The position numbers and the translations under genes were made by a program. From Thermoanaerobaculia bacterium (GTDB lineage Bacteria; Acidobacteriota; Thermoanaerobaculia; Gp7-AA8), in NCBI GenBank assembly GCA_035688915.1, contig DASSMK010000245.1, positions 1-61,928 of the forward strand: 61,928 nucleotides of DNA, given 5' to 3'. The notes under the pieces are model-generated. The model was not told where the DNA came from. It was given only the letters and a program-made list of their open reading frames with translations, and searched no databases. This document shows, one piece after another, positions 2,620 to 31,887 of this stretch (position 1 is its first letter; each line of letters begins with the position of its first letter).

Positions 2620-2634
2620 ACGGCAACGAGAAAT

Positions 2635-2670
2635 GCAGGGCCGGCGCAATCCGCCGGCCCTGCCTGTTTT
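2635..2670 (+). terminator. Rho-independent terminator/attenuator after rpsO
   Basis: 12-bp perfect stem GCAGGGCCGGCG (2635-2646) / CGCCGGCCCTGC (2652-2663), a 5-nt loop, then CTGTTTT. Confidence 0.8.
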
Positions 2671-2784
2671 CAGGCAACGTCCCTGCAAAACTTCCCCTCC
2701 GGCCGGATCCCATCATTCGGCCACCCCAGCGGCTAAATCAAACGCCCGTGGTGATGAGTGGCCACGGAGCATCGAAGGAAATCA

Positions 2785-5259
2785 ATGTTCAAAAGAGAAA
2801 TGGAGATCGGCGGCAAAGCCCTGTCGCTCGAGACGGGTGCGATCGCCAAACAGGCGCACGGCTCGTGCGTCGTCCGCTACGGCGACACGGTGGTGCTCGC
2901 CACCGCCTGCTACAAAGACGGCAACGTGATCGGCGACTTCATGCCGCTCACCGTCGACTACAAGGAGTACACCTACGCGGGCGGGCGCATCCCGGGCGGC
3001 TTCTTCAAACGTGAAGGACGCCCCACCGAGAAGGAAATTCTCACCTCGCGCCTCATCGACCGGCCGCTGCGCCCGTCGTTTCAGAAAGGCTACCGCCAGG
3101 AGACGCAGATCATCGCGCTCGTCCTCTCCGCTGACGGCGAGAACGATCCTGACGTCATGGCCATCAACGCCGCTTCCACGGCGCTGGTGATCTCCGAGAT
3201 TCCGTTCCACAACCCGATCGGCGCGGTGCGCGTCGGCTACGTGGATGGCCAGATCATCATCAATCCCACCAACTCGCAGCGCGATCTCTCCGACCTCGAT
3301 CTGATCGTGGCCGGCACCGACAACGCCATCGTGATGGTCGAAGCGGGCGCGCGCGAAGTGTCCGAAGCCGTCATCCTTGACGCGTTCGACGCGGCGCACG
3401 CCGAGATCCGCCGCATTTGCGATCTGCAGAAGCAGCTGCGCGGCGACGTCGGCAAGGACAAGCTGACCGTCGAGTTCAAGCCGAAGTTCACCGATGAGCT
3501 GCTGAACGAGCTGCTGGGCCAGTACGGCGCGCAGCTGAAGCAGGCCATGCTCACCACCGGCAAGCACCAGCGCTACGCCGCCATCAAAGCGGTGAAGCAG
3601 CAGATCGTGGAGAGCGTTCCGGCCGAAGACGCCGAGCGCCTGACCGCCGTCTCGGCCGCATTCGGCGAGATGGAAGTGCAGATCTTCCGCAACCTGATGC
3701 TGAACGACAACACGCGCGTCGACGGCCGCCGCTTCGATGAGATCCGCCCCATCTCCATCGACCTCGGCGTCCTCCCGCGTACGCACGGCTCCGCAATCTT
3801 CACGCGCGGCGAAACGCAGGCTCTCGTCACCATGACCCTCGGCACGCCGCAGGAAGCGCAGAAGATCGAAGACTTCGAAGGCGAGACCTTCCAGCGCTTC
3901 ATGCTGCACTACAACTTCCCGCCGTTCTCGGTCGGTGAAGTGAAGTTCCTGCGCGGTCCCGCGCGCCGCGAGATCGGCCACGGCAACCTCGCGCGCCGCG
4001 CGCTCGCGCCGCTGCTGCCGCCGGAAGACGAATTCGCGTACACCGTGCGCATCGTCTCCGACATCCTCGAGTCGAACGGCTCGTCGTCGATGGCTTCGGT
4101 CTGCGGCGGCTCGCTGGCCATGATGCAGGGCGGCGTGCCGATGCGCGCTGCCGTTGCCGGCGTGGCCATGGGCCTCGTTTCGAGCGAAGACAACAACAAG
4201 CACGTGGTGCTCACCGACATCGCCGGCATGGAAGACCATGAAGGCGACATGGACTTCAAGGTCGCGGGCTCCCGCGCCGGCATCACCGCGCTGCAGATGG
4301 ACATCAAGGTGTCGGGTCTGTCGCGCGAAGTGATGGCTCGCGCGCTCGAGCAGGCGCGCGCCGGACGCCTCTACATCCTCGACAAGATGGATGCGGCGAT
4401 CTCGACGCCCGCGGAGAAGCTCTCCGAGTACGCGCCGCGCCTCTACACGATTCAGATTCCGAAGGACCGCATCCGCGACGTCATCGGCTCGGGCGGCAAG
4501 ACCATCCGCTGGATCGTCGAAGAGACCGGCACGAAGATCGACGTCGAGGACGACGGCAAGGTGACGATCGCCGCGACGGACGCGAAAGCAGCCGAGCGCG
4601 CCATCGACATCATCAAGGGCCTGACCGCTTCGCCGGAAGTGAACACGAACTACAAAGGCACGGTGAAGCGCATCGAGCCGTACGGAGCGTTCGTCGAGAT
4701 CCTGCCGGGTCAGGACGGGCTGCTGCACATCAGCGAGATGGCGCACACGCGCGTCGGCCAGGTGACGGACATCCTCCAGCTCGGCGACGAAGTGGAAGTG
4801 CAGGTGGTCGGCATCGAGCCCGATACCGGCAAGATCCGTCTCTCGCGCAAACCGCTGCTGCCTCCTCCGACCGAGGAAGAGCTGGCGGCGGCGCGCAGTA
4901 GCCGTCCGCCGCGTGAAGGCGGCGATCGCGAGCATCGCGGAGACCGCGGTGATCGCGGTGGCGATCGCGGTGGACGCGGTGGCTTCGGCGGACGTGGCGG
5001 CAGTGGTGGTGGTGGTGATCGTGGTCCGCGCCGCGACGACCGTGGCCCGCGCAACGATCGCGGTCCGCGTCACGAAGGTGGCGACCGTGGTCCGCGCCGG
5101 GAAGGCGGAGACCGTCCGCCGCGCCGCGAAGGCGGCAACTTCGGTGGTGGCGAGAACAGCGGCGGTGGCAACACCGGCGGCGGAAACAGCGGCGGCGGCA
5201 ATGCCGGCGGCGGTTCGACCGGCAACGAAAGCGGCGGCGGCGGTTCCGATCAACAATAA
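2785..5259 (+). CDS. pnp: Polynucleotide phosphorylase with a 135-aa Arg/Gly-rich C-terminal extension
   Basis: Two RNase PH-like domains, KH and S1 regions are recognisable (MFKREMEIGGKALSLETGAIAKQAHGS..., ...GETQALVTMTLG..., ...SNGSSSMASVCGGSLAMM..., ...YKGTVKRIEPYGAFVEILPGQDGLLHISE...). The ORF opens at GTG 2758, but ATG 2785 matches the usual PNPase N-terminus. Confidence 0.95.
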   Translation: MFKREMEIGGKALSLETGAIAKQAHGSCVVRYGDTVVLATACYKDGNVIGDFMPLTVDYKEYTYAGGRIPGGFFKREGRPTEKEILTSRLIDRPLRPSFQKGYRQETQIIALVLSADGENDPDVMAINAASTALVISEIPFHNPIGAVRVGYVDGQIIINPTNSQRDLSDLDLIVAGTDNAIVMVEAGAREVSEAVILDAFDAAHAEIRRICDLQKQLRGDVGKDKLTVEFKPKFTDELLNELLGQYGAQLKQAMLTTGKHQRYAAIKAVKQQIVESVPAEDAERLTAVSAAFGEMEVQIFRNLMLNDNTRVDGRRFDEIRPISIDLGVLPRTHGSAIFTRGETQALVTMTLGTPQEAQKIEDFEGETFQRFMLHYNFPPFSVGEVKFLRGPARREIGHGNLARRALAPLLPPEDEFAYTVRIVSDILESNGSSSMASVCGGSLAMMQGGVPMRAAVAGVAMGLVSSEDNNKHVVLTDIAGMEDHEGDMDFKVAGSRAGITALQMDIKVSGLSREVMARALEQARAGRLYILDKMDAAISTPAEKLSEYAPRLYTIQIPKDRIRDVIGSGGKTIRWIVEETGTKIDVEDDGKVTIAATDAKAAERAIDIIKGLTASPEVNTNYKGTVKRIEPYGAFVEILPGQDGLLHISEMAHTRVGQVTDILQLGDEVEVQVVGIEPDTGKIRLSRKPLLPPPTEEELAAARSSRPPREGGDREHRGDRGDRGGDRGGRGGFGGRGGSGGGGDRGPRRDDRGPRNDRGPRHEGGDRGPRREGGDRPPRREGGNFGGGENSGGGNTGGGNSGGGNAGGGSTGNESGGGGSDQQ

Positions 5260-13782: not shown

Positions 13783-14232
13783 TCAGATGCCGTTCATGTA
13801 GCGGCGGAGGAACTGGATGTACTTCGGATCTTCGTCCGCGAAGATGTCGGGGCCTCCCGCCATGTAGGCTCGGGCCAGCTCGTCTTTGGCACGCTCGACG
13901 TTCTTTAGTTCGTACTCGACCTCTCCGAGCCGGAGATGCATGAACGCGTTGCCGAGTGCGTCCGGGCAGAACATTGCATGCTGCAGCGTCTGCCGCGCTT
14001 CCTCGTGGCGGCCGAGAATGTAGAGGACATCACCGATGGCGGCGAGCACCCATGTCGACGCCTCCCAGTCCTCGATCGGCGCTGGCAGCATGGCCAGCGC
14101 CGATCGAAAACGTTCGAGTGCCGGTTCGTACTGGCCCGTGTCGACGAGCGCCTCACCTGCGTTGGTCGTAGCGACGAGGCGTTCGTAGAGCGCGTCGTCC
14201 AGTGCTCTTGGCGATCTCTTTTTGATCATCAA
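13783..14232 (-). CDS. TPR-like putative immunity protein of the upstream RHS toxin
   Basis: 149-aa ORF whose ATG overlaps the RHS stop (ATGA at 14229-14232). Helical TPR-like repeats (YEPALERFRSALAM..., GRHEEARQTLQHAM..., ELKNVERAKDELARAY). Confidence 0.7.
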   Translation of the reverse strand: MMIKKRSPRALDDALYERLVATTNAGEALVDTGQYEPALERFRSALAMLPAPIEDWEASTWVLAAIGDVLYILGRHEEARQTLQHAMFCPDALGNAFMHLRLGEVEYELKNVERAKDELARAYMAGGPDIFADEDPKYIQFLRRYMNGI

Positions 14233-17200
14233 TTGTCAGGTCCCGGCCAATGCCCGGACCAGCCGCTGGGTCTTCGGTATTTCGCCTTGAGGCTCGCGCC
14301 ATTGGAACTATTAAGCGGCCCGTACTCGAAGATGTAATTGGCAGGGTCGCGCATCCATGCCCTCACTTCCGGCGATCGCGCTCCGTACTCCCAGAACTCC
14401 TCGTTCCATGCAGTGACGGCATCCACGGGATTGTGTCCCATGTGGATATTCCTGTCCAACTTCATCCACACACGCGGACCGCCGTTCTTGACCGGCACTC
14501 TCACCCACCAGGCACCGGCGCGCTTTTCGGCCAGGTTTGCGCTTTTCATGTTCCTCAGAACTGCCTGACCGGTCGCGCTCCATTTTCCCGGAGTGGCACC
14601 GACGGACAGCCGGCGACACGATGCTTTGACGTTGTGGACGAGAACGCGGGCCGGCGAAACGTAGTAGTCCTCAGCTTTTTCGACGCTGACGTTGTAAACC
14701 GGGGCAGGCGTGCTCGTAGCCGTCGTTTCGACGGAGCGGATGGGCACCGGCTGGCCGCGGTCATCGACGAGCGAGATGGTGGAAGTCAGCTCGGAGGCGG
14801 CGATCCAGCCCATCCCGTAGCCGCGGAACCGATGCGACGGCGTGGCGAGGATCTCGGTGCCGTCTGCCGTGATGATTCGAGTGACGTGATTCGTCTCGCC
14901 CTGATGGGTTTCGTAGACGCTGAATCGTCCGTGACCTTCGCCGCCGAGCGCATAGCCGGAGACCGACTGTCCGCGGCGGACTTGCTCGATCGGTTGCAGC
15001 GAGCCGTCGGCCATGAGAACCGTCTGGCCCGCGAGGAAGCTCGAGCAGGGAACGGACGACTCGGCGACATCTGCCGCTTCTGCTGCTTCGGCGCCGACCG
15101 TCTCGGCCGCGTCGGCGGATTTGCCGCGCACCGCGCGCGACAGCGCGCTCGCACCGTGTCCGAGCATCGGCGTCAGTCCGGCGCCGAGGCCGCCCAGGAG
15201 GCCGCCCATCAGCGCGCCTTCGAGCACCTCCTCGCTGTCGCCTCCGCCCATGGCCGTGTACGCCGCCCCTTCGCCGGCGCCGACGAAGACTGCGCCCGCC
15301 ATTCCGAGCTCCGCGCTCGTAATGCCTGCTGCCGCCGCCGCGGTGCCGAGCACAGTGGCGCTGGCGACACCCGCTTCGATCCCGAAACCGACCGCGCCGA
15401 GGGCGGCTCCGCCGAAGATTCCGGCGTAGGTACTGCCGGATGTCCAGTCCCAATGGGCCGGGTTCCACCGGTGATTCACCGTCGCGCCTCCCATGTAGGC
15501 GCCGAGAGCTGCACCTGCCACGATCAACGCCGGGATCAGAAAGGCGAAGCGGCCGTCCGGATCGATGATGCTGGCCGGGTTGTTGCCGCCATAGAGATAC
15601 GGATTCATGTACTGGCCTGCCGGATCAGGCGTCGTGAAGCGGCCGGTGCGAGGATCGAGATAGCGCGCGCCGAAGTCGTAGAAGCCCGACGCCTCATCAA
15701 ACCGCTTCCCGCCGAACTTCGGACGCGAATCATCCACGCCGGCGGTGACGGTCGGTTCCAGAAGACCGAACGGCAGATACCGGAGCGAGGCGCGGTGAAC
15801 GCCGTCGGTTGCGGTGACAGCGATGGTGTTCCCGGCCTGATCCTGCGCGAAATACCGCACACCGATGATCGGGTTCCCCGCGCCGTTGGGGCCGGGGCTC
15901 AAAGACGCCCATGCCGGGTTGACGCCCTGCAGCAGGACCGTGAGCACGAGCAGGCGCGCCACGCTGGCGAAAAGCCGGCGCCGCCGCGGCAGAGGTGAGG
16001 CCGGCCTGCCGGAGATGAGGAGGAACAATACCGCCGCGAGGAGAGATACGGCCGCGGTGCCAAGCGGCGCCAGACGCAGTGTCCGGGCGAACCAGCGGTC
16101 GAACAGCGACCGCACGCGGAGCCAGGGGTCGGGGCTGTGGTCGTACATCCGCCCGCGCATCTCGTGATCGATGGCTGCCTTCCCACCACCGGGAATCGCT
16201 GGCAGATTGGCATTCTCGGTAATCGCCACCATCGGTCCATAGGGCCCCTGGATCGTCTTCGTGCTGATCACCCGGCCCGTCTCCGGGTAAAGGACGATCT
16301 CGTAATCGGGCATCACCAGGAATGTCGACGTGTCCTGATCGCCGCCGCGGCCGGTCAACTGCCGGTAGACGATGTCTCCCGCGAAATCCTCCGCATAAAG
16401 GGCACGCTTCGGGGTTTGTCCTTGCTGGACTGAAGACAGCCTTCCGTCGAAGTGGTAACGGTACGCATAGAGATCGCCGTCGCGGAGCAGCGTATGCAGC
16501 GTGCCGTTGCCGTTCCAGGTCATCTGCAGACCGGGACCGTTCAGCATTCGATCGTTGGACTGGTCATAGGCGTACGGTCGTGGCCCCGCGCCGGCGGAAA
16601 TGCTGAGGCGGTTGCCGGCGCGGTCATAGGTGAAGCTGTTCGTGGTGGGGCCGACCGTCGCGCTCTTCAGATATGACATGGGCGGCGTGTCGTAGACATA
16701 GGAGCCGATGGCGACGCTCGGCGCGCTCTCGGTGATGAGATTGTATAGACGGTTCCACTGGTATTGGCGTTTGGTGAGGTCGATGCCGTCGCGCTGCCGG
16801 TGCACTGTGATCGTGGAGATCGCGCCGCCGCTCAGCTTCGCCTCGTCGTAGTAGTCGTGGCTGACGGAGACGGTATTGTCGAACGTCTCGAGCGCAGGCA
16901 TTGCGTAGGCCGTGTAGCCGCTCAGCGTTGCGTAGGTTTTCTGCGTGCCGTTGACGTCGACGAGCGTGTGCGTGGATGGATTGCCGCCGGCGGTGTAACC
17001 AAAGTCGAGGCGCGAGCGGTCGGGGAAGTGCTCGGATGTGACGCGCCCTTCGGGCGAGAAATCATAGCCATAGAGGAACGACCAGTTGGCGATGACCGCA
17101 AGACCGGACGTGACGTGTCCGTACGCGTCATAGCCGAACTGATGCGAGACCGTGATGTCATCGGCCGTCCGTTGGACGCTGGTGAGATGCCCTAGTCCAT

Positions 17201-20200
17201 TGGACGTATTGCCGTCGAATGCGAACGTGGTCGTTGCTGCGGCGATGCTGTCGCCGCTCTCGATGATCGTTTGAGGACGTCCAAGCAGGTCCCACGTGTA
17301 ATCGATGCGGTTCTCTGCGCCGTCGGTGATCGACTCGACGCGGCCGTCGATGTCGTACGTATACGTGCGCGTGCCCGCGTCTGGCGTGGTGTGCGCGTGA
17401 ATCCGTCCGATCGAGTCCCAATCCAACGTGGTCAGCCGCTGGTCGGAACCGGCGGCGATGCTCAGCGGCTGGCCCAGAGGATCATAGGTATAGGTGAGCG
17501 TCGACTCGTTCGGGAGCGTTCGCTGGATGAGGCGGCCGCGCGGATCGTATTTTTGAATGTCGGTCACCGCGTCGTCAGTTCCGGCGGCGCGTGTGTGCGT
17601 GACGGTGCGCGCGCCGCGCGTGTAGACGAATGTCTCAGCGACTTTGTCCGGACGCGTGATCTTGACGGGGCGGTCGTAATCGTCGTAGTCGATGGTGGTC
17701 CACGCGGTGGTCTTTCCGCTCAATGACGGCGCGCCGGTGCTCGAAACTCTCCCCGCGCCATCGAACTGAAGCTCCTGTTCGATGACGACCGCGCCGTCGC
17801 TGTCGCCCTTACGGTCGGTTTTATAGGGACGGTCGAGCGCGTCGTAATACGTTCGTCGCCAATGCCACGAATCGGTGGCAGGCTGGCCCTGGGGAATGCT
17901 CGCGAAATCAGAAGAAGTCCAGTCGGGACGCGTACGCTGGACCATGACGGTGCCGCCGGCGGTGCTTTCCCAGTGCGTCGTCAGCAGAACCTTGCCAACG
18001 CCTTGCGGGTCCGGCCCGGTCACGGAGACCGGCCGTCCCATCTCGTCGAAGGAGTACTCGGTTACGTTGCCGTTCCAGTCGGTATGTTTGGTAATCGTGC
18101 CGAAGCGGGTGTCGTATTCATAGCTCTCGACGAGATGTTTTCCGTTGGGCGTATCCGGAGACGTCGACCTCGTCATGAAGCGATGACTGTCGTCCCACTC
18201 GTACGTCGTCTGTGCACCGTCGGCCGTCGTGACCGCGGTGAGATTGCCATACTGGTCGTACGTGTATTCGTTGCGGAGCCAGTCGCCGCGGTGGTCGTCC
18301 CAGAACGCTTCTGAGGCCGTATTCATCGCGCCGTCGTATGTGAGGTGACGCAGCTGGAGATCGCCGGTGGCGAAGCCGGGCGCGTCGCCGAGAAAATTCA
18401 CACAGTTGATGTAAGAGAGCGTGTCCTTCTGTGCCCGCAGGTATCCCAGACGCCACTCTGCGTCGTCGTTGTCGTACCGCATGCAGAGGTAGTGGTCGTC
18501 GGTCAGGTCGGTCGGATCGCCGAGCTCGTCGATGCGGACGACGTTTCCGCGCTTGCCATAGTGGTAGACCCGCCTCAGCGAAAATTCGGCGGCACCGTTC
18601 TTCTGGCCCGCGTACGTCGTAGCCGTCTCCATGACGGGCACGATCTGATGGATGCCACGCGACTGCATGTCGTCGGCGGCATTGTCGGCGTAGGTGATGG
18701 TCGTTGATGTGAGCGCAATCTTCGCCTTGTTGTAATTCGTCACGGTTGTGGCCTGGCCCACGACGGGCCACTTCTGGCTGTACTGAATGGTGGTGCTGCG
18801 CTTGTCCTGGTCGGTCGTGGTGATGCCGGAGAAGCCGAGCCAGCCTTCGCCGTGCGCGCCTACGCGTGCTCCCGTATACGTCTCCGTGTATTTGTAAGTG
18901 CCCTTTTGGCCGTCGTCGACGGAGTAGGAGGAAACGACCGGCAGAGGGACGACCACGTCGCGCACGCCCGGTTCCGTCGCCGTTCCCTTCGTGTAGACGC
19001 TCGAATCCGTCAACGGTGCGTACTCGATCTTCGTTTTGCCACCCGCCGCATTGGTGATTGTCGACACCAGGTCCGCTTGCGATGCGTTCGGATATAGCCG
19101 TGAGAGGTCGAAAGACGCGAAGTTTGCGTTCGTTGCAACGAGAAGGTCGTCATTAGCGTCGCCGTCCAGATCGGCCGACAGAACGCCGAACGGCCAGCGC
19201 CCCATTGAGCCGTCCAGTGTCGTTTGAGCTTCCGACGCGAGCTCCCACGAATGTCCGTTCCTGTTGTACAGAGGCGTGACCGCCGTCTTGCCGTTTACAG
19301 GTTGGATCATGGCCAGGTCCGCGAGCTTGTCATCATTGAAGTTCGCGGCCACGACCGTCGTCACCGGGCCTTGAAGCACGAACGTAGGCCCCGCGACGAA
19401 TCGCGTCTCATTCGTGCCGGCTGCACCGGTCGAAATGAAGGTTTCAATTTTCGTATCGAGCAGAGAGACCGTGGCAGCGATCAGATCGCTCAGACCGTCG
19501 CCATTGACGTCGGCGCTGAAAAATTTCGTGCTCTCCAGGAAACCGAAGGTGGAATGCTTGTACGTCGAATCGTAGATAAAGCTGTCGTTCTGTGCGCGGA
19601 ATGTGACGAAGCCGCTCGGCGAAGCGGCCACGACGTCCATACGCCCGTCGCCGTTGACGTCCATAGGCAGATAAACCGAGGAATCGGTGTCGTTGGCGTA
19701 GGAGTATTGAGCGCCCTTCGTGAATGTGCCGTCGCCGGCAGATAAGTACGGAGTGATCGAACTGATCGTCACGACCATGACATCGGACAAGCCGTCGGCG
19801 TTGACGTCGCCGGACACGAGCTTGAAGAAGGAAAAATCGCTGATCCCGGCGTCCTCGATCAAGTCGCTCGACCCGGCGGCGCCGAACATCGTGCCGTCGG
19901 AACGATAGCTGTAGAACTGCATCCTGGTCTTTTTCGGGTCGTTGGTCGGCAGCCGCCTCATGACGACGAGATCACCGCGGCCATCGCCGTCCACATCGTT
20001 CGGCACAATGGCGATGGCCGGCTCGCGCCCCCCGATGGCAGGGCCGAGGTCGAGCGTTTGTGGCGCAGACGTTTTCAACGCGGTACGCCCCGTCGAAGCG
20101 TGCACGCTCACGTAAACATTCGTCGCCCAGTAACCGGTGTGATCGTATGTGGACTGATACGTGGCGTTGACGATGTCGTCGCGTCCATCGCCGGTCATGT

Positions 20201-21227
20201 CGAATGCGGATACGTCACCGAGCCAGTAGACCGGCTGCTGCGCGTCCGACTTGGCAGTGAAGCCCTGCGCGGAGTTGACGTTCGTGAACTGCGTCGGCTT
20301 GTAGCACTTCGTCGCCCCGCATTCCTGAATGGCAGTGACGCGGCTGCGTGCCGTGGCCGCGGAGTACTCGTACGTCAGGTTCCAGGAGCGGAGATCGTTG
20401 CCGTCGTCGTCATAGGTAACCACTCGCGACAGCCGCTGCGTGACGTGCTCCGGCGAGCCGCCGGAGTAGCGCGAAATCGCATCGGTGCGGTCTTCGTATT
20501 CGAAGCCGATGCGTTTCGCTCCTGCGTATTCGATCGACGATACGTAATAGCCGGCGGCTCCATCGTGCGTGTACTTCGTGACTACGTTGACGCCGCGGAT
20601 GTCCTTCCATTCGTCGACGCTCCAGACGCGGATCGCGCCGTCCGCGCGTCCTTCGGCCGGGATCCGTCCGCCCGTTGCACCGGCCGATCCGCCGAACTCG
20701 AGCTGCGCCCCGTCTTTGTTTGTAGCGGTGAAGTAACAGGGTCCGTCGCCACAGAGGCCATGTGACACGAATTTCGTCCAGGTATCGCTCTCCGTCCTAT
20801 ATTCCGCTCCGTCGGCGCCGTATGTGCCGGACGTGGCAATGAGACTCATGCCGGAGATGCAGAACCGGTCGCCGCTGTCGTACGAAACGGTACCGGCAGT
20901 GGCGTGAGCGCGGACCGTCGCGCCACAGCGGCCGATCGCGTCAATGCCATTCAATGACCAGCCGACGCCCAGCAGGCCATTCCCCCGCTCGCTGTTGTAA
21001 GTCAGCGACAACGAGGGTGCGACGCCGTTGATGCCGGGAGGTGCCTCGATCGGTACTCTATACGTCGCCGCACCGGCCACGACGTCGAACGAACCCGCTG
21101 GCGTGCCGGCAATGAGCGTCGATGTCTGCGCCTGCATCTCCGCGTTCGGCTCGAGATGCACGGTGCCGGACACGATGAGGCTGACCGTGGCCAAGGCGAG
21201 AACTCTCCCCAGTCCGTGACGAGTCAT
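14229..21227 (-). CDS. Polymorphic toxin, 2332 aa. Domain order: signal peptide; SpvB/TcB-like domain; FG-GAP/VCBS propeller; RHS/YD-repeat shell; RHS core; Gly-zipper TM region; PT-HINT; HNH/EndoVII (GH-E-like) nuclease tip.
   Basis: SpvB-type motif TYRVPIEAPPGINGVAPSLSLTYNS. Repeated DVNGDGxxD FG-GAP motifs. Many YD repeats (YxYDxxGR). Core GARYLDPRTGRFTTPDP...NPYLYGGNNPASIIDPDG. Hint domain from CSSFLAGQTVLMADG to ...VLVHN. Tip motifs MGHNPVDAV...NYIFEYGPLNSSNG. Confidence 0.9.
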   Translation of the reverse strand: MTRHGLGRVLALATVSLIVSGTVHLEPNAEMQAQTSTLIAGTPAGSFDVVAGAATYRVPIEAPPGINGVAPSLSLTYNSERGNGLLGVGWSLNGIDAIGRCGATVRAHATAGTVSYDSGDRFCISGMSLIATSGTYGADGAEYRTESDTWTKFVSHGLCGDGPCYFTATNKDGAQLEFGGSAGATGGRIPAEGRADGAIRVWSVDEWKDIRGVNVVTKYTHDGAAGYYVSSIEYAGAKRIGFEYEDRTDAISRYSGGSPEHVTQRLSRVVTYDDDGNDLRSWNLTYEYSAATARSRVTAIQECGATKCYKPTQFTNVNSAQGFTAKSDAQQPVYWLGDVSAFDMTGDGRDDIVNATYQSTYDHTGYWATNVYVSVHASTGRTALKTSAPQTLDLGPAIGGREPAIAIVPNDVDGDGRGDLVVMRRLPTNDPKKTRMQFYSYRSDGTMFGAAGSSDLIEDAGISDFSFFKLVSGDVNADGLSDVMVVTISSITPYLSAGDGTFTKGAQYSYANDTDSSVYLPMDVNGDGRMDVVAASPSGFVTFRAQNDSFIYDSTYKHSTFGFLESTKFFSADVNGDGLSDLIAATVSLLDTKIETFISTGAAGTNETRFVAGPTFVLQGPVTTVVAANFNDDKLADLAMIQPVNGKTAVTPLYNRNGHSWELASEAQTTLDGSMGRWPFGVLSADLDGDANDDLLVATNANFASFDLSRLYPNASQADLVSTITNAAGGKTKIEYAPLTDSSVYTKGTATEPGVRDVVVPLPVVSSYSVDDGQKGTYKYTETYTGARVGAHGEGWLGFSGITTTDQDKRSTTIQYSQKWPVVGQATTVTNYNKAKIALTSTTITYADNAADDMQSRGIHQIVPVMETATTYAGQKNGAAEFSLRRVYHYGKRGNVVRIDELGDPTDLTDDHYLCMRYDNDDAEWRLGYLRAQKDTLSYINCVNFLGDAPGFATGDLQLRHLTYDGAMNTASEAFWDDHRGDWLRNEYTYDQYGNLTAVTTADGAQTTYEWDDSHRFMTRSTSPDTPNGKHLVESYEYDTRFGTITKHTDWNGNVTEYSFDEMGRPVSVTGPDPQGVGKVLLTTHWESTAGGTVMVQRTRPDWTSSDFASIPQGQPATDSWHWRRTYYDALDRPYKTDRKGDSDGAVVIEQELQFDGAGRVSSTGAPSLSGKTTAWTTIDYDDYDRPVKITRPDKVAETFVYTRGARTVTHTRAAGTDDAVTDIQKYDPRGRLIQRTLPNESTLTYTYDPLGQPLSIAAGSDQRLTTLDWDSIGRIHAHTTPDAGTRTYTYDIDGRVESITDGAENRIDYTWDLLGRPQTIIESGDSIAAATTTFAFDGNTSNGLGHLTSVQRTADDITVSHQFGYDAYGHVTSGLAVIANWSFLYGYDFSPEGRVTSEHFPDRSRLDFGYTAGGNPSTHTLVDVNGTQKTYATLSGYTAYAMPALETFDNTVSVSHDYYDEAKLSGGAISTITVHRQRDGIDLTKRQYQWNRLYNLITESAPSVAIGSYVYDTPPMSYLKSATVGPTTNSFTYDRAGNRLSISAGAGPRPYAYDQSNDRMLNGPGLQMTWNGNGTLHTLLRDGDLYAYRYHFDGRLSSVQQGQTPKRALYAEDFAGDIVYRQLTGRGGDQDTSTFLVMPDYEIVLYPETGRVISTKTIQGPYGPMVAITENANLPAIPGGGKAAIDHEMRGRMYDHSPDPWLRVRSLFDRWFARTLRLAPLGTAAVSLLAAVLFLLISGRPASPLPRRRRLFASVARLLVLTVLLQGVNPAWASLSPGPNGAGNPIIGVRYFAQDQAGNTIAVTATDGVHRASLRYLPFGLLEPTVTAGVDDSRPKFGGKRFDEASGFYDFGARYLDPRTGRFTTPDPAGQYMNPYLYGGNNPASIIDPDGRFAFLIPALIVAGAALGAYMGGATVNHRWNPAHWDWTSGSTYAGIFGGAALGAVGFGIEAGVASATVLGTAAAAAGITSAELGMAGAVFVGAGEGAAYTAMGGGDSEEVLEGALMGGLLGGLGAGLTPMLGHGASALSRAVRGKSADAAETVGAEAAEAADVAESSVPCSSFLAGQTVLMADGSLQPIEQVRRGQSVSGYALGGEGHGRFSVYETHQGETNHVTRIITADGTEILATPSHRFRGYGMGWIAASELTSTISLVDDRGQPVPIRSVETTATSTPAPVYNVSVEKAEDYYVSPARVLVHNVKASCRRLSVGATPGKWSATGQAVLRNMKSANLAEKRAGAWWVRVPVKNGGPRVWMKLDRNIHMGHNPVDAVTAWNEEFWEYGARSPEVRAWMRDPANYIFEYGPLNSSNGASLKAKYRRPSGWSGHWPGPDN

Positions 21228-21328
21228 GGGACTTCTCCTGCCGTTGATTTGGATTGCGACCGGAAGTCAGTATGGGCGGAAGAAAGTGCTTCGCGCCAGC
21301 TGCAATATTGGAAGCTCCATCTGGCAGA

Positions 21329-21664
21329 ATGAGTCGCATGCCTTCCGTCTCCACGCCCGAACCGCCGTACTACGCCGTGATCTTCACGTCGACGCGCACC
21401 GAGGGCGACGACGGCTACGGCGACATGTCGGTGAAGATGAACGAGCTCGCCGCGCAGCAGCCCGGCTTCCTCGGCGTCGAATCCGCCCGCGGCGCCGACG
21501 GCCTCGGCATCACCGTCTCGTACTGGGAAAGCGAAGAAGCGATCGCGAACTGGCGGAAGAACGTGGAGCACCGCGTCGCGCAGACACACGGGCGCGGTAG
21601 GTGGTACGACCAGTTCGTGACGCGCGTGGCGAAAGTGGAGCGGGTGACGCGCTTCAGCCGCTGA
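21329..21664 (+). CDS. Antibiotic biosynthesis monooxygenase (ABM) domain protein
   Basis: About 110 aa with ferredoxin-like ABM features (YYAVIFTS...GFLGVESARGADGLGITVSYWESEEAIANWRKNVEH). Alternative ATG at 21338. Confidence 0.65.
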   Translation: MSRMPSVSTPEPPYYAVIFTSTRTEGDDGYGDMSVKMNELAAQQPGFLGVESARGADGLGITVSYWESEEAIANWRKNVEHRVAQTHGRGRWYDQFVTRVAKVERVTRFSR

Positions 21665-22448
21665 CGATGCGCTCTGCGCTCGTGTAGACGTTGAAGCGCT
21701 CACCGCGCACGAAGCCGATGAGCGTCACGCCGAATTCGTGCGCCAGCTCGACGGCGAGCGTGGATGGCGCGCCAACGGCGGCGAGGATCGGGATGCCCGC
21801 CACAATCGTCTTCTGCACGATCTCGAAGCTCAGGCGGCCGCTCACCACCAGCGCGTGCTGCGCGAGCGGCGTCGCCGATTCGAGAAAGAACGAGCCGATC
21901 ACCTTGTCGACCGCGTTGTGGCGTCCGACATCTTCCCGCGCGCGGAGGATGTTGCCGTCCGCATCGAAGATTGCCGCGCCGTGAATCGCGCCGGTAGCGT
22001 CGAACGACGTTTGCTGCGCGCGCAGCAGTTCGGGCATGGCGATGATCTTTGCGGCGTGCATGCGCAGATCAGATTGCACGGGCGCAGTTTGCACGCGCAG
22101 CGCGTCGATCGACGTCTTGCCGCAAACGCCGCACGATGATGTCGAGTAAAAGTGACGCTGCAATCGCTGCAGATCGAGCTTCACGCCGTCGCGCAATTGC
22201 ACGCGCACCACATTCGGCGAGCCCCAATGGCGAATTGATTCGATTTCATCCGCCGCGTGCAGAATCGACTCGCTAAAGAGAAATCCTGCGGCGAGCTCAA
22301 AGTCTTCACCGGGCGTGCGCAGCGTGACGGAGACCGGCTTCTCGCCGATGCGAATCTCCAGCGGCTCTTCCACCGCCAGCACGTCCTCGTCGCGCGACGC
22401 GGCTTCGCCGCTGACGCGGGTGATGGGAACGCGCGAGGTGGGCTGCAT
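21654..22448 (-). CDS. fdhD: Formate dehydrogenase accessory sulfurtransferase FdhD
   Basis: 264 aa with the SSCGVCGK motif and a C-terminal GRHNAVDK... region. Divergent from fdhA. Confidence 0.9.
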   Translation of the reverse strand: MQPTSRVPITRVSGEAASRDEDVLAVEEPLEIRIGEKPVSVTLRTPGEDFELAAGFLFSESILHAADEIESIRHWGSPNVVRVQLRDGVKLDLQRLQRHFYSTSSCGVCGKTSIDALRVQTAPVQSDLRMHAAKIIAMPELLRAQQTSFDATGAIHGAAIFDADGNILRAREDVGRHNAVDKVIGSFFLESATPLAQHALVVSGRLSFEIVQKTIVAGIPILAAVGAPSTLAVELAHEFGVTLIGFVRGERFNVYTSAERIVSG

Positions 22449-25622: not shown

Positions 25623-26267
25623 TCATGATGCCCACGTAGCGGCGAGCTCTGCTCGTGATCTTTCGTAGTGGTTGCAGTCGAGGTTCCCCTTTGCGTCGCC
25701 AGGAATGCCCGGGACCGCGTTCGGCGTGAGGCCGTTGCGGCTGTCGGTGTACTGCCACAGCCAGAAGTCAGTCCAACTCGGCTGAATGACGGGTTCTTCG
25801 TTGTAGTGCGCCAGCCACAGGCGGTGACTGCCGAAGAACGCATCCCGTTTTTTGCGCAGCGCGTCTTTGATCGTGTGCCCGCTGTACAGAACCGGTTTCC
25901 GGCCGAGGCGTGCGGCGAGCTGTTCGAGGAACTCGCGGGCTTGCGTGAGAGTCATCTGGTTGCCCGCCGTGTCCTCAAAGTCGAGAGCGACGAGCGTCTC
26001 GTCGTCCGGTTCACTCCGCCGCAGGAAGTTCTCCACTTGCTTCGCGACGTTCGCATGCGTGCCCCAGTGATACGCGCCCCACAGCAGGCCCGCGTCCCGC
26101 GCAAGCGTCCGGCGCGCGGCGTACGTTTCATCTTTGCCGGTCGCGCCGGTCGTCGCTTTGTGAATGATTCCCCAGACGCCGGCTTCAGCGGCTGCGTGGA
26201 AATCCTCGACAACGTCGCCGTGGGACAGGTCAACGACACGAACCGCACGATCGATCACGACTCGCAC
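25623..26267 (-). CDS. Glycoside hydrolase family 25 lysozyme (muramidase), no signal peptide
   Basis: VVDLSHGDVVEDFHAAAEAGVWGIIHKATTGATGKDETY...GLLWGAYHW...ALDFED...LWLAHY...WLWQYT...GNLDCNHY matches the GH25 pattern. Confidence 0.8.
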   Translation of the reverse strand: MRVVIDRAVRVVDLSHGDVVEDFHAAAEAGVWGIIHKATTGATGKDETYAARRTLARDAGLLWGAYHWGTHANVAKQVENFLRRSEPDDETLVALDFEDTAGNQMTLTQAREFLEQLAARLGRKPVLYSGHTIKDALRKKRDAFFGSHRLWLAHYNEEPVIQPSWTDFWLWQYTDSRNGLTPNAVPGIPGDAKGNLDCNHYERSRAELAATWAS

Positions 26268-27153: not shown

Positions 27154-28052
27154 AAGCGACCGAAGCGCGGCTCGACGAAATCCGCCGCACCGCAGCCGCT
27201 CTTCCCGCGAGCGCGCCGAAAGACTCGTATTACGACCTCCCGCTGCTCAAGGCACCGGTGTGGACGTGGGAAATCCCGACGTACTTTTTCATCGGCGGTG
27301 CGGCCGGCGCTGCCGCAGTGATCGGCGCCGCCGCGCGCATGACGGGCGCGAACGAGAAGCTCGTACGCGACGCGCGCTGGATCGCCGCCATCGGCGCCAA
27401 TCTCTCCACGCCGCTCCTCATCGCCGACCTCGGACGTCCCGAGCGTTTCCTCTACATGCTGCGCATCTTCAAGCCGCAGTCGCCGATGTCCGTCGGCGCG
27501 TGGATCGTCGCCGCATTCGGCGGCGCGTCGACGGCCGCGCTGTTCGTGCCGACGAAAACGCTGAAAGATCTCGCCGCGTTTGCATCCGCCGCAACGGGCC
27601 TGGGCATGGCCACGTACACCGGCGTGCTCCTCGGCGCCACCGCCATTCCGGTGTGGGCCGAGCACGTGGCGACGCTGCCGATTCACTTCGGCGCATCCGC
27701 GCTCGGCTCCGCCGCATCGCTGCTCCAACTGCGCGGCCACGACACGCGCGCCATCCGCTCGCTCGCCCTCGGCGCCGCGGTCGTAGAGACCGCGACCAGC
27801 ATCGCTATGGAACGTCGTGACCACGCCGCAGACGACGCGACAAAACGCACCACGCGCCTCGGCGGCATCCTGGCCGGACCGGTGCCGCTCGCGCTGCGTC
27901 TCCTCGGCGGACGCTCCAAAACGATGCGCCGCATGGCCGCGGTTTCCGCGCTGGCCGGATCGCTGATCACGCGGTTCGAGTGGGTGGCCGCCGGCAAAGA
28001 AAGCGCGCGAAATGCCGCCGCCGCGCTCGCTCCGCGCCGCGACTCGAAGTAA
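27150..28052 (+). CDS. NrfD/PsrC-like polytopic membrane subunit of the formate dehydrogenase complex
   Basis: GTG at 27150 overlaps the preceding stop (GTGA). About 300 aa with about 8 TM helices (YYDLPLLKAPVWTWEIPTYFFIGGAAGAAA...). Confidence 0.75.
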   Translation: MKATEARLDEIRRTAAALPASAPKDSYYDLPLLKAPVWTWEIPTYFFIGGAAGAAAVIGAAARMTGANEKLVRDARWIAAIGANLSTPLLIADLGRPERFLYMLRIFKPQSPMSVGAWIVAAFGGASTAALFVPTKTLKDLAAFASAATGLGMATYTGVLLGATAIPVWAEHVATLPIHFGASALGSAASLLQLRGHDTRAIRSLALGAAVVETATSIAMERRDHAADDATKRTTRLGGILAGPVPLALRLLGGRSKTMRRMAAVSALAGSLITRFEWVAAGKESARNAAAALAPRRDSK

Positions 28053-28122
28053 ACTTACGGCAATCCGTCCAAAGCAGTCGCACCCGTTGTCGCACCCGTT
28101 GTCCAACCACCGGAGGTGTCGA

Positions 28123-31100
28123 ATGTCGTCTTTACCGCTCGAGCTGCATCAGGTTCTGGAAGAAGAGTACGTGTCGATGTACGGGCCGCTCCCGCGAGGG
28201 CGCGTCGATTACGCGGCCGAGGACATCCTCGATGCGGTGTGGGCGCGGGCGGTGCTGCATGAATGCGGACCGGAAGCCGACGTGAAGTCGGAGCCGGAAG
28301 CGGTCGCGCAGTTTCTCTCCGCGATCGTCACGGACGACGCCGCGGCGGAAAAGAACCTGGAGATGCTGGAGCGCTCGCGCGCGTTGACGCCGCGCGGACG
28401 GCACTTCATCGACCACTACGACGAATACGCGAAATCGCTGCGCGACGAAGGCGGCGATGTGGCGGTGCGCGAGCTGCGCCGCGCCATCTGTGACGACGCA
28501 CTGTCCGGCGCTGTCCGCACGCGTTCCGACCAGCGGTTGGAGAGCATTTACCAGCAGATTCACAAACGCGGCGAGAAGAGTCCGCGCACCGCACTGTGCG
28601 TCTCCGGCGGCGGCATCCGCAGCGCCACCTTCGCACTCGGCGTGATGCAGGGACTGGCCAGCGCCGGGATGCTGCAGAAGTTCGACTATCTCTCCACCGT
28701 CTCCGGCGGCGGTTACATCGGCGGCTGGCTGTCGTCGTGGATGCGCCGTCATCCCGAAGGCGCGAGCGGCGTGGCCAGGGATCTGCGCGAAGCCGACACC
28801 GCCATCGTCGCGCGGCCGAAGAGCGTCACGCCGGATGGCGAGGTGCTGCCATCCGTCGACAAAGCGCCGCCCGCGCACAAGATCAATCCGGAACCGAAAC
28901 CGCTGCGCCATCTGCGCGCGTACAGCAACTATCTCAGCCCGCGCCTCGGCCTTTTCTCCGGCGACACGTGGGCCATGGCTTCGCTCTACATCCGCAATCT
29001 GCTTCTGAACCTGCTCGTGCTCGTGCCGCTGCTCGCGTTCGTGCTCGCGTTCCCGCGCATGTTCAGCGCCGTGCTCGAATTCAGCCGCGATCTCGATCAT
29101 CGTCACGTCTTCCAGCCGAGCGTCTGGGCGTATGTCGCTGCCGGTTTCGCGATCGCCGGCTTCGCGTATCTCGGATACAAACGTCCCGTTGCGCAAGGCG
29201 ATCGCGCGCAGCGGAAGTGGCGCGCCGTCACGACGGACGGTCGCTTTTTGGCCTTCTGCGTTCTGCCGCTCACGCTCTCGGGCGTTTCGCTGGCGGTCTT
29301 CTGGGCGCGCGTGCAGCAGCATCCCGGGCTGCTCGGCGAAGCGGCTCCGCAGCGCGCGATGTGGCTCGCCCTCGGCGGCATGACCGTCATCCCGTATCTG
29401 CTCTATTACGGCCGTTTCTGGGCCACGCTCCCGGCCGAGCGCCGCACTTCCTTTTCTGGCAGCGGCCGCAGCGCGCAACTCCTGAAGCAGGCGTGCGAGC
29501 TGTTCGCTGCGCTGGTGGCCATGGGCTCCGCGATCGCGTTGCTGACCCTCATTGCGAAGAAAGTATTTGCCGAGCCGCTGCGTCCCGTGCCGGTCACTGA
29601 CGCGGTCGAGCCGCTGCTGCGCGTCGGCATGGCCACACTGCCGCAGGCGCAGCTTTACGTCTGTCTGGCCGTGCCGTTGATCCTGCTCGTCTACTTCGTG
29701 CAGGCGAGCATCTTCGTCGGCATCTCCAGCCTCTTCAACGAAGACTCCGATCGCGAGTGGTGGGGCCGCGCCGGCGGCTGGCTGCTGCTCTCCGCCGTTT
29801 TCCTGGCCGTCTTCAATCTGATCTCTGTGTTCGGCCCGATCGCGTTTTACTACGCGCCCGCAATCGTCGCGTCGATCGGCGGCGTGGCCGGCATCGCGTC
29901 CGCGCTGCTCGGGTTCAGCGACAAAACGCCCGCCAATCAGAAGGAGAAAGAAGACGCCGGCATGACCGCGAAGGCGGGCAACGCCGCGTCGGTGCTGGTC
30001 GTGCCTCTCTTCGTCGTAGCGCTGCTGGCCGGAATCTCCCTCGGCACCACCTGGCTCATTCAGGAGATCGACAGCAACTACCTGAAGGACAAGATCATCA
30101 GCGCTGACGCCTTCGCGGAGAAGTCGCTCTACAACGCGCAGTACGAAGTGAAGCAGCCCATCACCACGCCGTCCGGCATCGTGCAGGCGACGCACAAAAC
30201 CGCCGCCGTCCCGGTCACGAGCCTGGAGGCGTTGCGCGCCGCCGCACACCTGCAGACGGTGCAAACCACCAACGCCGGCCAGTGCGCCGCCATCGCGCTC
30301 ATCGCGCTCGCGGCGCTCGGTCTCTCGCGTCTCATCGGCGTGAACAAATTCTCGATGCACGCGTTGTATCGCAATCGCCTGATCCGCGGTTACCTCGGCG
30401 CCTCGCGCTACAACCGCGATGCGGATCGCTTCACCGGCTTCGACGAAAACGACAATCTGCAGATGTGGGAGCTGCGGCCCGAGGTGCTGTGGGCGTGGAG
30501 CTTCATCGACGTGGAGGGTTTCGTCCGCGCGATGAAAACGCGCGACACGACGTTCACCAAACATCTATGGGACGACTGCCTGCACAAGAAAACGCGTCGC
30601 AAGCTCGAGACTACGCTGAAGATCGACGGCGTCGCGCTCGATGCGCTCGTGCAGAACCTGAACGAGATCATCGTCAACGGCTCGCTGGCCACGGAGTTTG
30701 CGGTACCGGACTGGTGCACGACTGACGATGACAAGCAGATCGGCTACTCGCGTGCGATCCGCAACCGCGCCGTGCTCGACGCGAACACCGCCGGCTGGAT
30801 CAAGCCGATGACGCCGCCGCTCGACGCGAAAGACGCACCCGATCCGAATTTCCGCCGCCCGCCGCTGCACGTCGTCAACACCGCTCTCAATTGCACGAGC
30901 GGCGAGAATCTGGCGTGGCAGCAGCGCATGGCCGAGTCGTTCACCGTCTCGCCGTATCACTCCGGAAGCCTCTTCCTCGGCTACCGCGGGTCGAAAGAAT
31001 ACGGCGGCGATGACGGCATCTCGCTCGGCACTGCGGTCACGATCTCCGGCGCCGCGGCCAGCCCGAACATGGGCTACCACTCGTCGCCGACGATGGCTTT

Positions 31101-31887
31101 CCTGCTTACCTTCTTCAATATCCGCCTCGGCGCGTGGCTCGGCAATCCGGGTCCCGACGGCCGCAAGTCGTACATGAAGGGACATCCGCGTTCCGGCATC
31201 GTGCAGTTCTTCGCGGAGCTCACGGGCAACTCCACCGACCGTTCGAAGTGGGTCTATCTCTCCGACGGCGGTCACTTCGAGAACCTCGGCCTGTACGAGA
31301 TGGTGCTGCGCCGCTGCCACACGATCGTGCTTAGCGACGCCGGCGCCGATCCGACGTACAACTTCGAAGATCTCGGCAACGCCATCCGGAAAATCCGCAC
31401 CGACCTCGGTGTGCCGATCGACATCAGCCGCATCGCCGAGGCGCCGCGCGGCGCGAACGGCGAGCCGGTCGACGGACGCTATCTCGCCGTTGGCAAGATC
31501 CGCTACAGCGCGGTCGACAAGAACGGCAAAGACGGAACGCTGATCTACATCAAGCCGGGCATCTTCAAGGATCCGGACGTGCCCGTCGACGTGTACAACT
31601 ACGCGCAGCAGTCGCGCGACTTCCCGCACGAATCGACGGGCGATCAGTTCTTCAGCGAGTCACAGTTCGAGAGCTACCGCGCCCTCGGCCGTCATGCGGT
31701 GGCGCAGCTCTTCGGCGGTGGCGACGGCGCGCCGTGGGAGCTGGCGGCCGATCCTCGTCTGCCGATCAAACGTTCGGATCTGAAGGGACTGTTCGGCGAT
31801 TCGCCGGTGGTTCCGCAGCTCCCGGCCGAGCCGAAACTGCAGCTACGTCCCAACGACGCAGCGCGTCGCCGACATCCGATCGGGTAG
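28123..31887 (+). CDS. Patatin/cPLA2-like phospholipase (1254 aa) whose catalytic domain is split by a large polytopic membrane insertion
   Basis: GGAGG 6 nt upstream of the ATG. Oxyanion motif SGGGIRS (aa 161-167), nucleophile elbow TVSGGG (Ser194), and dyad Asp in YLSDGGHFENLG (Asp1048). About 10 hydrophobic helices lie between aa ~283 and ~740. Confidence 0.8.
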   Translation: MSSLPLELHQVLEEEYVSMYGPLPRGRVDYAAEDILDAVWARAVLHECGPEADVKSEPEAVAQFLSAIVTDDAAAEKNLEMLERSRALTPRGRHFIDHYDEYAKSLRDEGGDVAVRELRRAICDDALSGAVRTRSDQRLESIYQQIHKRGEKSPRTALCVSGGGIRSATFALGVMQGLASAGMLQKFDYLSTVSGGGYIGGWLSSWMRRHPEGASGVARDLREADTAIVARPKSVTPDGEVLPSVDKAPPAHKINPEPKPLRHLRAYSNYLSPRLGLFSGDTWAMASLYIRNLLLNLLVLVPLLAFVLAFPRMFSAVLEFSRDLDHRHVFQPSVWAYVAAGFAIAGFAYLGYKRPVAQGDRAQRKWRAVTTDGRFLAFCVLPLTLSGVSLAVFWARVQQHPGLLGEAAPQRAMWLALGGMTVIPYLLYYGRFWATLPAERRTSFSGSGRSAQLLKQACELFAALVAMGSAIALLTLIAKKVFAEPLRPVPVTDAVEPLLRVGMATLPQAQLYVCLAVPLILLVYFVQASIFVGISSLFNEDSDREWWGRAGGWLLLSAVFLAVFNLISVFGPIAFYYAPAIVASIGGVAGIASALLGFSDKTPANQKEKEDAGMTAKAGNAASVLVVPLFVVALLAGISLGTTWLIQEIDSNYLKDKIISADAFAEKSLYNAQYEVKQPITTPSGIVQATHKTAAVPVTSLEALRAAAHLQTVQTTNAGQCAAIALIALAALGLSRLIGVNKFSMHALYRNRLIRGYLGASRYNRDADRFTGFDENDNLQMWELRPEVLWAWSFIDVEGFVRAMKTRDTTFTKHLWDDCLHKKTRRKLETTLKIDGVALDALVQNLNEIIVNGSLATEFAVPDWCTTDDDKQIGYSRAIRNRAVLDANTAGWIKPMTPPLDAKDAPDPNFRRPPLHVVNTALNCTSGENLAWQQRMAESFTVSPYHSGSLFLGYRGSKEYGGDDGISLGTAVTISGAAASPNMGYHSSPTMAFLLTFFNIRLGAWLGNPGPDGRKSYMKGHPRSGIVQFFAELTGNSTDRSKWVYLSDGGHFENLGLYEMVLRRCHTIVLSDAGADPTYNFEDLGNAIRKIRTDLGVPIDISRIAEAPRGANGEPVDGRYLAVGKIRYSAVDKNGKDGTLIYIKPGIFKDPDVPVDVYNYAQQSRDFPHESTGDQFFSESQFESYRALGRHAVAQLFGGGDGAPWELAADPRLPIKRSDLKGLFGDSPVVPQLPAEPKLQLRPNDAARRRHPIG

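Follow-up and report, generated by a model that had tools for sequence, protein, structure and literature searches.

In 2012 Zhang et al. tabulated a 'TcdB/TcaC' (SpvB-RHS) class of polymorphic toxins that combines a signal peptide, an SpvB domain, an integrin-like β-propeller, RHS repeats, a HINT domain and a variable toxin; the HINT releasing peptidase stands just ahead of the toxin and an immunity gene follows downstream (PMC3482391, Table 1). Here we analyse a toxin gene of this kind and the small gene that follows it, which codes for a protein with tetratricopeptide repeats (TPR), on contig DASSMK010000245.1 of a Thermoanaerobaculia bacterium (Acidobacteriota, assembly GCA_035688915.1); the window that we analysed is the entire contig, 61.9 kb in length. 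As the class is described there, the toxin/TPR pair belongs exactly to it, having a hydrophobic N-terminus (judged by eye), SpvB and a propeller, RHS repeats and an Rhs core, a conserved scaffold with variable tips, and a tip-linked downstream gene for which protection is predicted.

The TcB-TcC cocoons of toxin complexes (Tc; TcdB2-TccC3 and YenB-YenC2/RHS2; 4o9x, 4igl, 5kis) share the SpvB domain, propeller, midN domain and YD shell with the present toxin, and in them, too, an aspartyl protease of the Rhs core frees an enclosed C-terminal cargo. The toxin differs from these BC subunits in being a single polypeptide with a Sec signal, in its hydrophobic module, Hint domain and nuclease-type tip, in the predicted immunity gene, and in that no TcA was found; its similarity to the solved TcB and TcC proteins is weak (E 9e-4 to 1e-5). 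Rhs effectors of type VI secretion systems (T6SS; RhsA, Rhs1, TseI and Tse5; PMC8765631, PMC8636562, PMC10684867) likewise consist of a YD cocoon with a self-cleaved toxin and come with an immunity gene, but they have PAAR or prePAAR N-termini and need VgrG, whereas the present toxin has SpvB, a propeller and a Sec signal; no T6SS genes lie near it in the contig. Bacterial teneurin-like proteins (PMC13018210) are also Sec-exported YD shells that enclose polymorphic toxins and are accompanied by immunity genes, but they are built on a TTR/FN-plug/NHL propeller superfold instead of SpvB/FG-GAP/TcdB_midN, and PMC13018210 makes no mention of SpvB or TcB. Our literature search found no delivery experiments on the SpvB-RHS class.

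We regard it as probable that the locus encodes a polymorphic toxin/immunity pair of the SpvB-RHS class that is used against bacteria and has no adjacent TcA partner. An earlier sequence-only reading of this DNA had described open reading frames (ORFs) of 2332 and 149 aa; both are present, and all motifs that it quoted are found in the larger one in the order given, namely TYRVPIEAPPG (residues 55-65), DVNADGLSD (474-482) and DVNGDGRMD (523-531) in the N-terminal part, RYLDPRTGRF (1855-1864) and IIDPDG (1887-1892) in the core, and CSSFLAGQTV (2061-2070), VLVHN (2195-2199) and MGH (2263-2265) in the C-terminal part. The domain order is an N-terminal hydrophobic signal, SpvB, FG-GAP propeller, TcdB_toxin_midN, RHS/YD repeats and Rhs core, followed by a glycine-rich hydrophobic region, the Hint domain and a 133-aa tip. 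The novelty that had been implied for this architecture is not supported, as the class was tabulated in 2012 (PMC3482391) and the SpvB-propeller-midN-RHS scaffold is common to at least 698 proteins, many of them with PT-HINT and together with a wide range of tips.

The toxin tip and its TPR partner

A word-indexed search with the tip returned one homolog only, whereas 406 proteins were collected when a profile started from the tip and its one indexed relative was searched exhaustively. These proteins range from 90 to 3455 aa, and in every listed member the match lies at the C-terminus, the hallmark of a toxin tip. The tip alone matches Pfam GH-E (PF14410) with 19.2 bits over profile positions 10-66 of 68. 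Matches to GH-E at E ≤ 1e-3 were obtained for 17 of 75 short family members (best E 8.6e-8), and two further members (P0050 and P0053, 25.3 bits each) pass the gathering score of GH-E. Candidate catalytic residues of the tip are His2265, Glu2301 and Asn2306; in tip numbering, G65-H66, E102 and N107 are invariant within the close subfamily, and conservation over the 75 members is 90% or higher for M64, H66, N76 and N107.

A model of the tip computed with AlphaFold2 (AF2) from 75 sequences reached a predicted local distance difference test (pLDDT) score of 95.9 and has a β-hairpin/helix layout, in which GH ends strand 62-66, E lies in strand 99-103 and N starts helix 104-114; the layout of these residues is that of GH-E. 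A Foldseek comparison of the model with the PDB gave a lowest E of 2.3, and NucA and EndoG came up as weak matches at E 3-7; this at least agrees with PMC3113570, where GH-E is described as a stand-alone NucA-like active site. Neither sequence nor profile searches with the tip retrieved any PDB entry. The tip resembles GH-E in the order of the GH, E and N residues, in overlapping family membership and in its place at the C-terminus, which is typical of GH-E in Rhs and PAAR toxins (PMC3113570, PMC5714182). It differs from that family by an N-terminal extension in which a GxTPGKxSxTG motif is conserved, by a helical insertion that separates the two strands of the core, by scoring below the family threshold and by its TPR partner. 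From the profile matches, the conserved residues and the model we conclude that the tip is a predicted divergent GH-E (HNH/EndoVII, NucA-like) His-Me nuclease. The sequence-only reading had placed it in the GH-E clade of HNH/EndoVII nucleases, and the overlap of the tip family with Pfam GH-E bears this out for the identity of the tip, not for its activity.

The tip occurs after a Hint domain, right after an Rhs core, or on Tox-PAAR-like and PAAR proteins of T6SS type. A scan for the tip over one genome per species yielded 21 loci, and in 19 of them a TPR homolog follows on the same strand about 30-500 nt downstream, as it also does in L001-L003. The 19 loci are spread over four phyla or groups (Acidobacteriota, Bacteroidota, Alpha- and Gammaproteobacteria). 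Their carriers include SpvB-RHS-Hint proteins (L007-L013), Rhs proteins with the tip directly after the core (L006, L014), proteins of Tox-PAAR-like or PAAR type, as is typical of type VI secretion (L016, L017, L020, L021, P0050, P0051, P0056) and truncated orphan tips (L023, L024, L026). Two cyanobacterial tips, L022 and L025, the latter from a Prochloron metagenome-assembled genome (MAG), have no TPR partner. Downstream of scaffold relatives that bear other tips no TPR homolog was found, other small genes being present there, and the tip of the present toxin was found in one of the 120 scaffold homologs listed, the others carrying AHH, HNH, Endonuclease_NS_2 and further tips. Across these sequences, the TPR gene tracks the tip, not the scaffold, the hydrophobic module or the Hint domain, which argues for immunity and against a chaperone role. 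A tip-linked TPR gene, together with scaffold relatives that have other tips and other genes, is the signature of a toxin/immunity cassette.

The TPR protein has no signal sequence, and its calculated isoelectric point (pI) is acidic (5.0), as opposed to the basic pI of the tip (10.3). Given its genomic distribution it is most likely a cytoplasmic immunity protein, and the immunity position assigned to its gene by the sequence-only reading is supported by the homologs found downstream of the tip across phyla and carrier types. The junction of the two genes reads AAT TGA TGA TC, so that the TPR gene may start at TTG (TTGA overlap, 149 aa) or at ATG (TGATG, one shared base, 148 aa); the 148-aa form with the ATG start is protein-database entry P0002. 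The two genes are translationally coupled whichever start codon applies. The overlap with the toxin stop codon noted before is thus correct, whereas the overlapping sequence is TTGA or TGATG instead of ATGA.

Scaffold, Hint domain and hydrophobic modules

Searches of Pfam and NCBIfam agree with the earlier assignment of a TcB/TcC-type SpvB-propeller-RHS shell with an Rhs core (Table 1). The matches to RHS_repeat, FG-GAP_3, SpvB and TcdB_toxin_midN all exceed the Pfam gathering scores, the SpvB region has a weak sequence match to the TcB protein YenB (E 9e-4), and the Rhs core has PDB matches in the corresponding region of SGS1, TccC3, YenC2 and RHS2. The closest scaffold relative in the databases is at most 36% identical, which means that the lineage of this toxin is poorly sampled; the homolog in L001 is 31% identical over the full length, and near relatives are named 'polymorphic toxin-type HINT domain-containing protein' at NCBI. 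By hydropathy scan the core of the N-terminal hydrophobic stretch comprises residues 5-25, and 57 of 98 scaffold homologs have an N-terminal hydrophobic segment. A Sec-type signal peptide had been proposed here; the hydrophobic stretch is present, judged by eye, but no clear AxA cleavage site is visible after it, and a signal anchor would fit too.

The Hint domain, described before as complete, matches both PT-HINT and the bacterial intein-like domain structure 2lwy (region 2062-2199). The PT-HINT match, at 23.2 bits, is below the cut-off of 27.7, yet it spans profile positions 4-136 of 137, and the catalytic motifs are intact (Cys2061, a TPSH block of the TxxH type and the terminal HN in VLVHN2199). 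In intein chemistry the +1 residue bears on splicing versus cleavage; here the residue after HN is Val, so that cleavage is expected and not splicing. A Hint domain was found in 23 scaffold relatives.

Between the Rhs core and the Hint domain lies the hydrophobic region that had been described as a Gly/Ala zipper, and its length of 168 aa was confirmed; it contains 44% Gly+Ala (whole protein, 21%) and 10 GxxxG motifs. No Pfam family matches it. Searched alone against the PDB with phmmer, this module matches the mosquito salivary proteins SGS1 (8fjp, E 4.1e-16) and SGS4 (9on3, E 2e-8), and Rhs core and module together give a contiguous match to SGS1 through the IDPDG cleavage site (E 7.1e-38); SGS1 is the best solved-structure match of the entire toxin. 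Module and SGS1 have in common the repeat GAxxGAYxGxAxxNxxWNPAxWDWxSxxTWxGxxxGA, directly after the Rhs cleavage site, with one clear repeat in the toxin versus three in SGS1. By sequence the module is homologous to the 'daisy-chained' predicted transmembrane helices of SGS1 and SGS4. Many members of the class have a hydrophobic segment after the core (60 of 98 relatives).

In SGS1 the homologous segment is predicted to be transmembrane, yet cryo-electron microscopy (cryo-EM) located it inside the Rhs shell after cleavage by the aspartyl protease, and the hidden helices are followed by another cleavage site and, at the end, by a toxin-like domain (PMC9935623). Protease site, hidden helices, second cleavage site and terminal toxin-like domain thus follow in the same order in SGS1/SGS4 and in the present toxin. 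SGS1 differs in being eukaryotic, in having three repeats, a furin site where the toxin has Hint, and an arthropod-specific Tox-SGS end domain, and in the absence of both a pre-core hairpin and an immunity gene. Bacterial RHS toxins have already been proposed as ancestors of the SGS proteins (PMC3482391), and for Tse5 an Rhs cocoon is known to store and deliver a membrane-inserting fragment (PMC10684867). By analogy with these proteins, the best available model is that residues 1893-2060 would be membrane-inserting helices stored in the cocoon, and the idea of a membrane-active region, put forward from the sequence before, gains support from the homology to the SGS1 helices.

A second hydrophobic element, overlooked in the earlier reading, was detected by hydropathy scan about 45-100 residues ahead of the Rhs core. 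This insertion consists of a hydrophobic helix 1 (segment 1716-1746), an Arg-rich loop (PRRRR) and a hydrophobic helix 2 (segment 1751-1770) ending NPAWA|S, followed by PGPNGAGNP; no Pfam family matches the region. The hairpin arrangement is kept in 13 of 98 scaffold homologs, including proteins of Leptospira kobayashii and Arenibaculum, and the motif PGxNGxGxP is present in 11 of these 13 versus 1 of the remaining 85. All 13 proteins with the hairpin also have a hydrophobic segment after the core, and 12 of them have a Hint domain. Small residues stand at -1/-3 before the motif in most of 15 aligned sequences (by eye), as at sites of signal peptidase I. In sequence terms the hairpin marks a subclass of the SpvB-RHS toxins. 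By ordinary membrane-protein rules it would be a stop-transfer helix followed by a re-export signal, an arrangement that would tether the cocoon to the inner membrane of the producer and perhaps split the chain. Our literature search, including passages of PMC3482391, found no description of a pre-core hairpin.

Combining these elements, we infer secretion, nuclease activity, immunity, membrane translocation and independence of TcA genome-wide, and propose the following course of events. The protein would be exported by Sec via its N-terminal signal, and SpvB, FG-GAP propeller, midN and YD repeats, by family membership, would fold into a closed TcB/TcC-like cocoon. The aspartyl protease of the Rhs core would cut after IIDPDG, at about residue 1892; the motif is present here, and cleavage has been shown in relatives only. 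The freed C-terminal piece of about 46 kDa would begin with glycine-zipper helices hidden in the shell, as seen for SGS1 by cryo-EM. On contact with a target these helices may leave the shell, enter the target membrane and take the rest of the piece across. Cleavage by Hint at Asn2199 would then release the basic 133-aa GH-E-type His-Me nuclease, which would degrade nucleic acid in the cytoplasm of the target. The acidic, cytoplasmic, co-translated TPR protein would, as synteny suggests, bind and block the nuclease within the producing cell and its kin.

Table 1. Position of the toxin gene, its parts and the TPR gene in the window.
Feature	Residues	Coordinates	Strand	Evidence
Toxin ORF	2332 aa	14229..21227	minus	
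N-terminal signal peptide or signal anchor	1-~33	21129..21227	minus	Hydropathy scan, by eye
SpvB-type N-terminal domain (best Pfam stretch)	51-132	20832..21077	minus	PF03534 E 1.6e-10
FG-GAP/VCBS β-propeller	~340-700	19128..20210	minus	FG-GAP_3 E 1.7e-19, 5 stretches; FG-GAP E 3e-11
TcdB_toxin_midN	684-818	18774..19178	minus	PF12256 E 7.2e-9
RHS/YD-repeat shell	~820-1700	16128..18770	minus	RHS_repeat E 1.7e-21; TIGR01643 E 1.7e-16
Pre-core insertion	1712-1790	15858..16094	minus	Hydropathy 2.32 and 1.72
Rhs-associated core with aspartyl autoprotease motifs, ends IIDPDG	1817-1892	15552..15779	minus	TIGR03696 E 3.1e-17
Post-core Gly/Ala-rich hydrophobic module	1893-2060	15048..15551	minus	phmmer against PDB
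Pretoxin Hint domain	2061-2199	14631..15047	minus	PT-HINT E 8.8e-5; 2lwy E 1e-7
C-terminal toxin tip, 133 aa	2200-2332	14232..14630	minus	GH-E E 0.0019; tip family; AF2 model
TPR protein ORF	148/149 aa	13783..14232	minus	TPR_12 E 1.3e-10 (Pfam); junction read directly

Competing explanations

Several observations weigh against a released nuclease toxin with its own immunity protein that acts on other bacteria. The GH-E score of the tip (19.2 bits) is under the gathering threshold of 25, there is no solved GH-E structure to compare the tip with, and modelling of the last 133 aa alone, as proposed in the sequence-only reading, gave a confident model but no significant structural match to the PDB by Foldseek. 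Some TPR homologs, such as P0019 (50% identical), have no toxin nearby, so that the TPR family is not strictly tied to toxins. No route across the outer membrane is evident, no such system being encoded nearby in the contig, and the contig ends leave room for TcA genes farther off in the genome. Finally, the hairpin would be expected to halt Sec transfer and to anchor the protein in the inner membrane of the producer, which is hard to reconcile with a freely released toxin in a bacterium with two membranes.

Two further readings involve the hairpin. The first goes beyond the toxin/immunity pair itself and is, in our judgement, rather unlikely: the subclass to which this toxin belongs might be a self-contained, 'A-less' Tc machine in which hairpin and SGS1-type helices jointly take the place of the TcA translocon. 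With its stop-transfer helix, basic loop, re-export helix, AxA site and PGxNGxGxP motif, the hairpin would bring the cocoon into position at a membrane or prime it there, and the stored glycine-zipper helices would provide the conduit by which the Hint-nuclease cargo crosses the membrane of the target. The second, which we consider improbable, is that the cocoon is never released; anchored by the hairpin in the inner membrane of the producer and facing the periplasm, it would serve contact-dependent kin discrimination or defence against attackers that invade the periplasm. The arrangement of two hydrophobic segments around an Arg-rich loop agrees with the positive-inside rule, an AxA-type site comes next, the hairpin-bearing relatives that can be named come from two-membrane lineages, and the ORFs of the contig encode no outer-membrane export system nearby. 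However, the same cassette of tip and immunity gene is found with classic offensive carriers, the homologous helices of SGS1 are kept in a soluble shell, so that hydrophobic segments need not anchor a protein in its producer, and the literature passages that we searched contain no experimental precedent for an anchored cocoon.

The TPR protein might also be a chaperone of the hydrophobic cargo, akin to class II chaperones of the LcrH/SycD type, or a regulator, instead of an immunity protein; we hold this to be distinctly improbable. Hydrophobic translocators are often chaperoned by TPR proteins. A weak NCBIfam match to LcrH_SycD (E 8.6e-4) points in the same direction, although it is far under the cut-off, as do the TPR homologs that occur away from any toxin. 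A chaperone of the hydrophobic module is, however, difficult to reconcile with a TPR gene that is present where module and Hint domain are absent, as next to the tips that directly follow an Rhs core and next to the orphan tips, and missing where relatives of the scaffold retain the module but bear other tips. The acidic pI of the TPR protein versus the basic one of the tip speaks for immunity as well, and the copies without a toxin match the well-known pattern of orphan immunity genes. One of the latter, a 50%-identical homolog at positions 10001-10441 of L004/L005, has a two-partner-secretion transporter (ShlB/POTRA) and a protein of 1638 aa encoded next to it; this copy fits the usual orphan pattern and is possibly an orphan immunity gene in another toxin neighbourhood.

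That the protein is a conventional Tc BC subunit, which docks on a TcA pentamer encoded elsewhere and injects eukaryotic cells, is very improbable: its SpvB domain, FG-GAP propeller, TcdB_toxin_midN, RHS repeats and Rhs core are TcB/TcC parts, B-C fusions are known in genomes (PMC7861908) and distant TcA genes would lie out of view beyond the contig ends, but neither the 61.9 kb nor the flanks of the related loci examined contain a TcA-type domain, a conserved immunity-type gene follows the tip whereas the surveyed Tc loci are without immunity genes (PMC7861908), the same tip is carried by antibacterial T6SS PAAR-like proteins, and an N-terminal Sec signal and a Hint domain are traits of polymorphic toxins, not of Tc toxins. 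Pfam searches of the approximately 40 ORFs of the contig found no TcA (VRP1, TcA_TcB_BD, neuraminidase-like), VgrG, PAAR or Hcp domains, in agreement with the earlier statement that the window holds no TcA, VgrG or PAAR gene, and none of the related loci examined has VgrG or PAAR beside it. A 2091-aa minus-strand ORF beside the Aquimonas locus was considered as TcA and rejected, as it has no Pfam match and is not TcA-like.

Genomic setting and implications

The neighbours of the toxin/TPR pair in the window are housekeeping genes (PNPase, phosphoglucomutase, E1 dehydrogenase, FdhD, molybdopterin oxidoreductase), and the related loci lie in unrelated housekeeping neighbourhoods. The window contains no further orphan tip/immunity cassettes or Rhs fragments. 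In some relatives extra SpvB-RHS or RHS genes are found near the tip-bearing gene (L025, 13371-19340; L012, 15182-17023), showing that such toxins can cluster. Four related loci have a gene of about 400 aa directly upstream of the toxin gene (L001, 1782-2978; L008, 2037-3314; L011, 2014-3219; L007, ~2070-3307). The products are 31-75% identical to one another and match no Pfam family, and no homolog is present in the window; the gene could code for an accessory factor of the toxin system.

Overlapping the start of the toxin gene, a minus-strand ORF at 21224..21703 was rejected as a gene, its GC content at third codon positions (GC3) being 0.575 versus 0.82 for the ORF on the opposite strand, which has an ABM domain by Pfam. 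A GH25 muramidase is encoded 4.4 kb upstream of the toxin gene (25623-26267, minus strand), and a 1291-aa patatin-like phospholipase protein at 28012-31887 (plus strand); lysis-dependent release is known for Yersinia Tc toxins (PMC10847048). A Na+/H+ exchanger family protein (38416-39834, minus strand) is split into adjacent ORFs of 313 and 137 aa, which cover profile positions 9-253 and 284-374 and suggest a frameshift, a pseudogene or a sequencing error. Type I restriction-modification genes for HsdR (1031 aa) and HsdM (558 aa) occupy 53579-59545 (minus strand), with a gap of about 1.2 kb between them where the specificity subunit is expected, in the lower-GC end of the contig (0.59-0.63). 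The last ORF, which runs to the contig end (60406-61851, minus strand), contains YadA-head repeats and Peptidase_S74, a tail-fibre/endosialidase chaperone domain, and resembles a surface fibre protein or one of the phage tail-fibre type.

Within its class, which is abundant in environmental bacteria, the toxin is a divergent addition (at most 36% identity). In the catalogue of PMC3482391, Tox-GH-E is not listed with the TcdB/TcaC route, the combination found here, and its immunity families are Imm-SuFu and Imm-ank, with no TPR protein among them; a GH-E tip on the TcdB/TcaC route with predicted TPR immunity is a small addition to it. The pairing of this GH-E subfamily with a TPR protein of about 145 aa is new and well supported, and it helps to annotate about 400 tips and their partners. 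The hairpin provides a concrete handle on how cocoons without TcA meet membranes, and the post-core module links bacterial SpvB-RHS toxins, at the level of sequence, to the helices of SGS1, which are solved in structure and puzzling in function. If hairpin and stored helices did replace the TcA translocon, the same module would explain the original purpose of the enigmatic SGS helices of mosquitoes.

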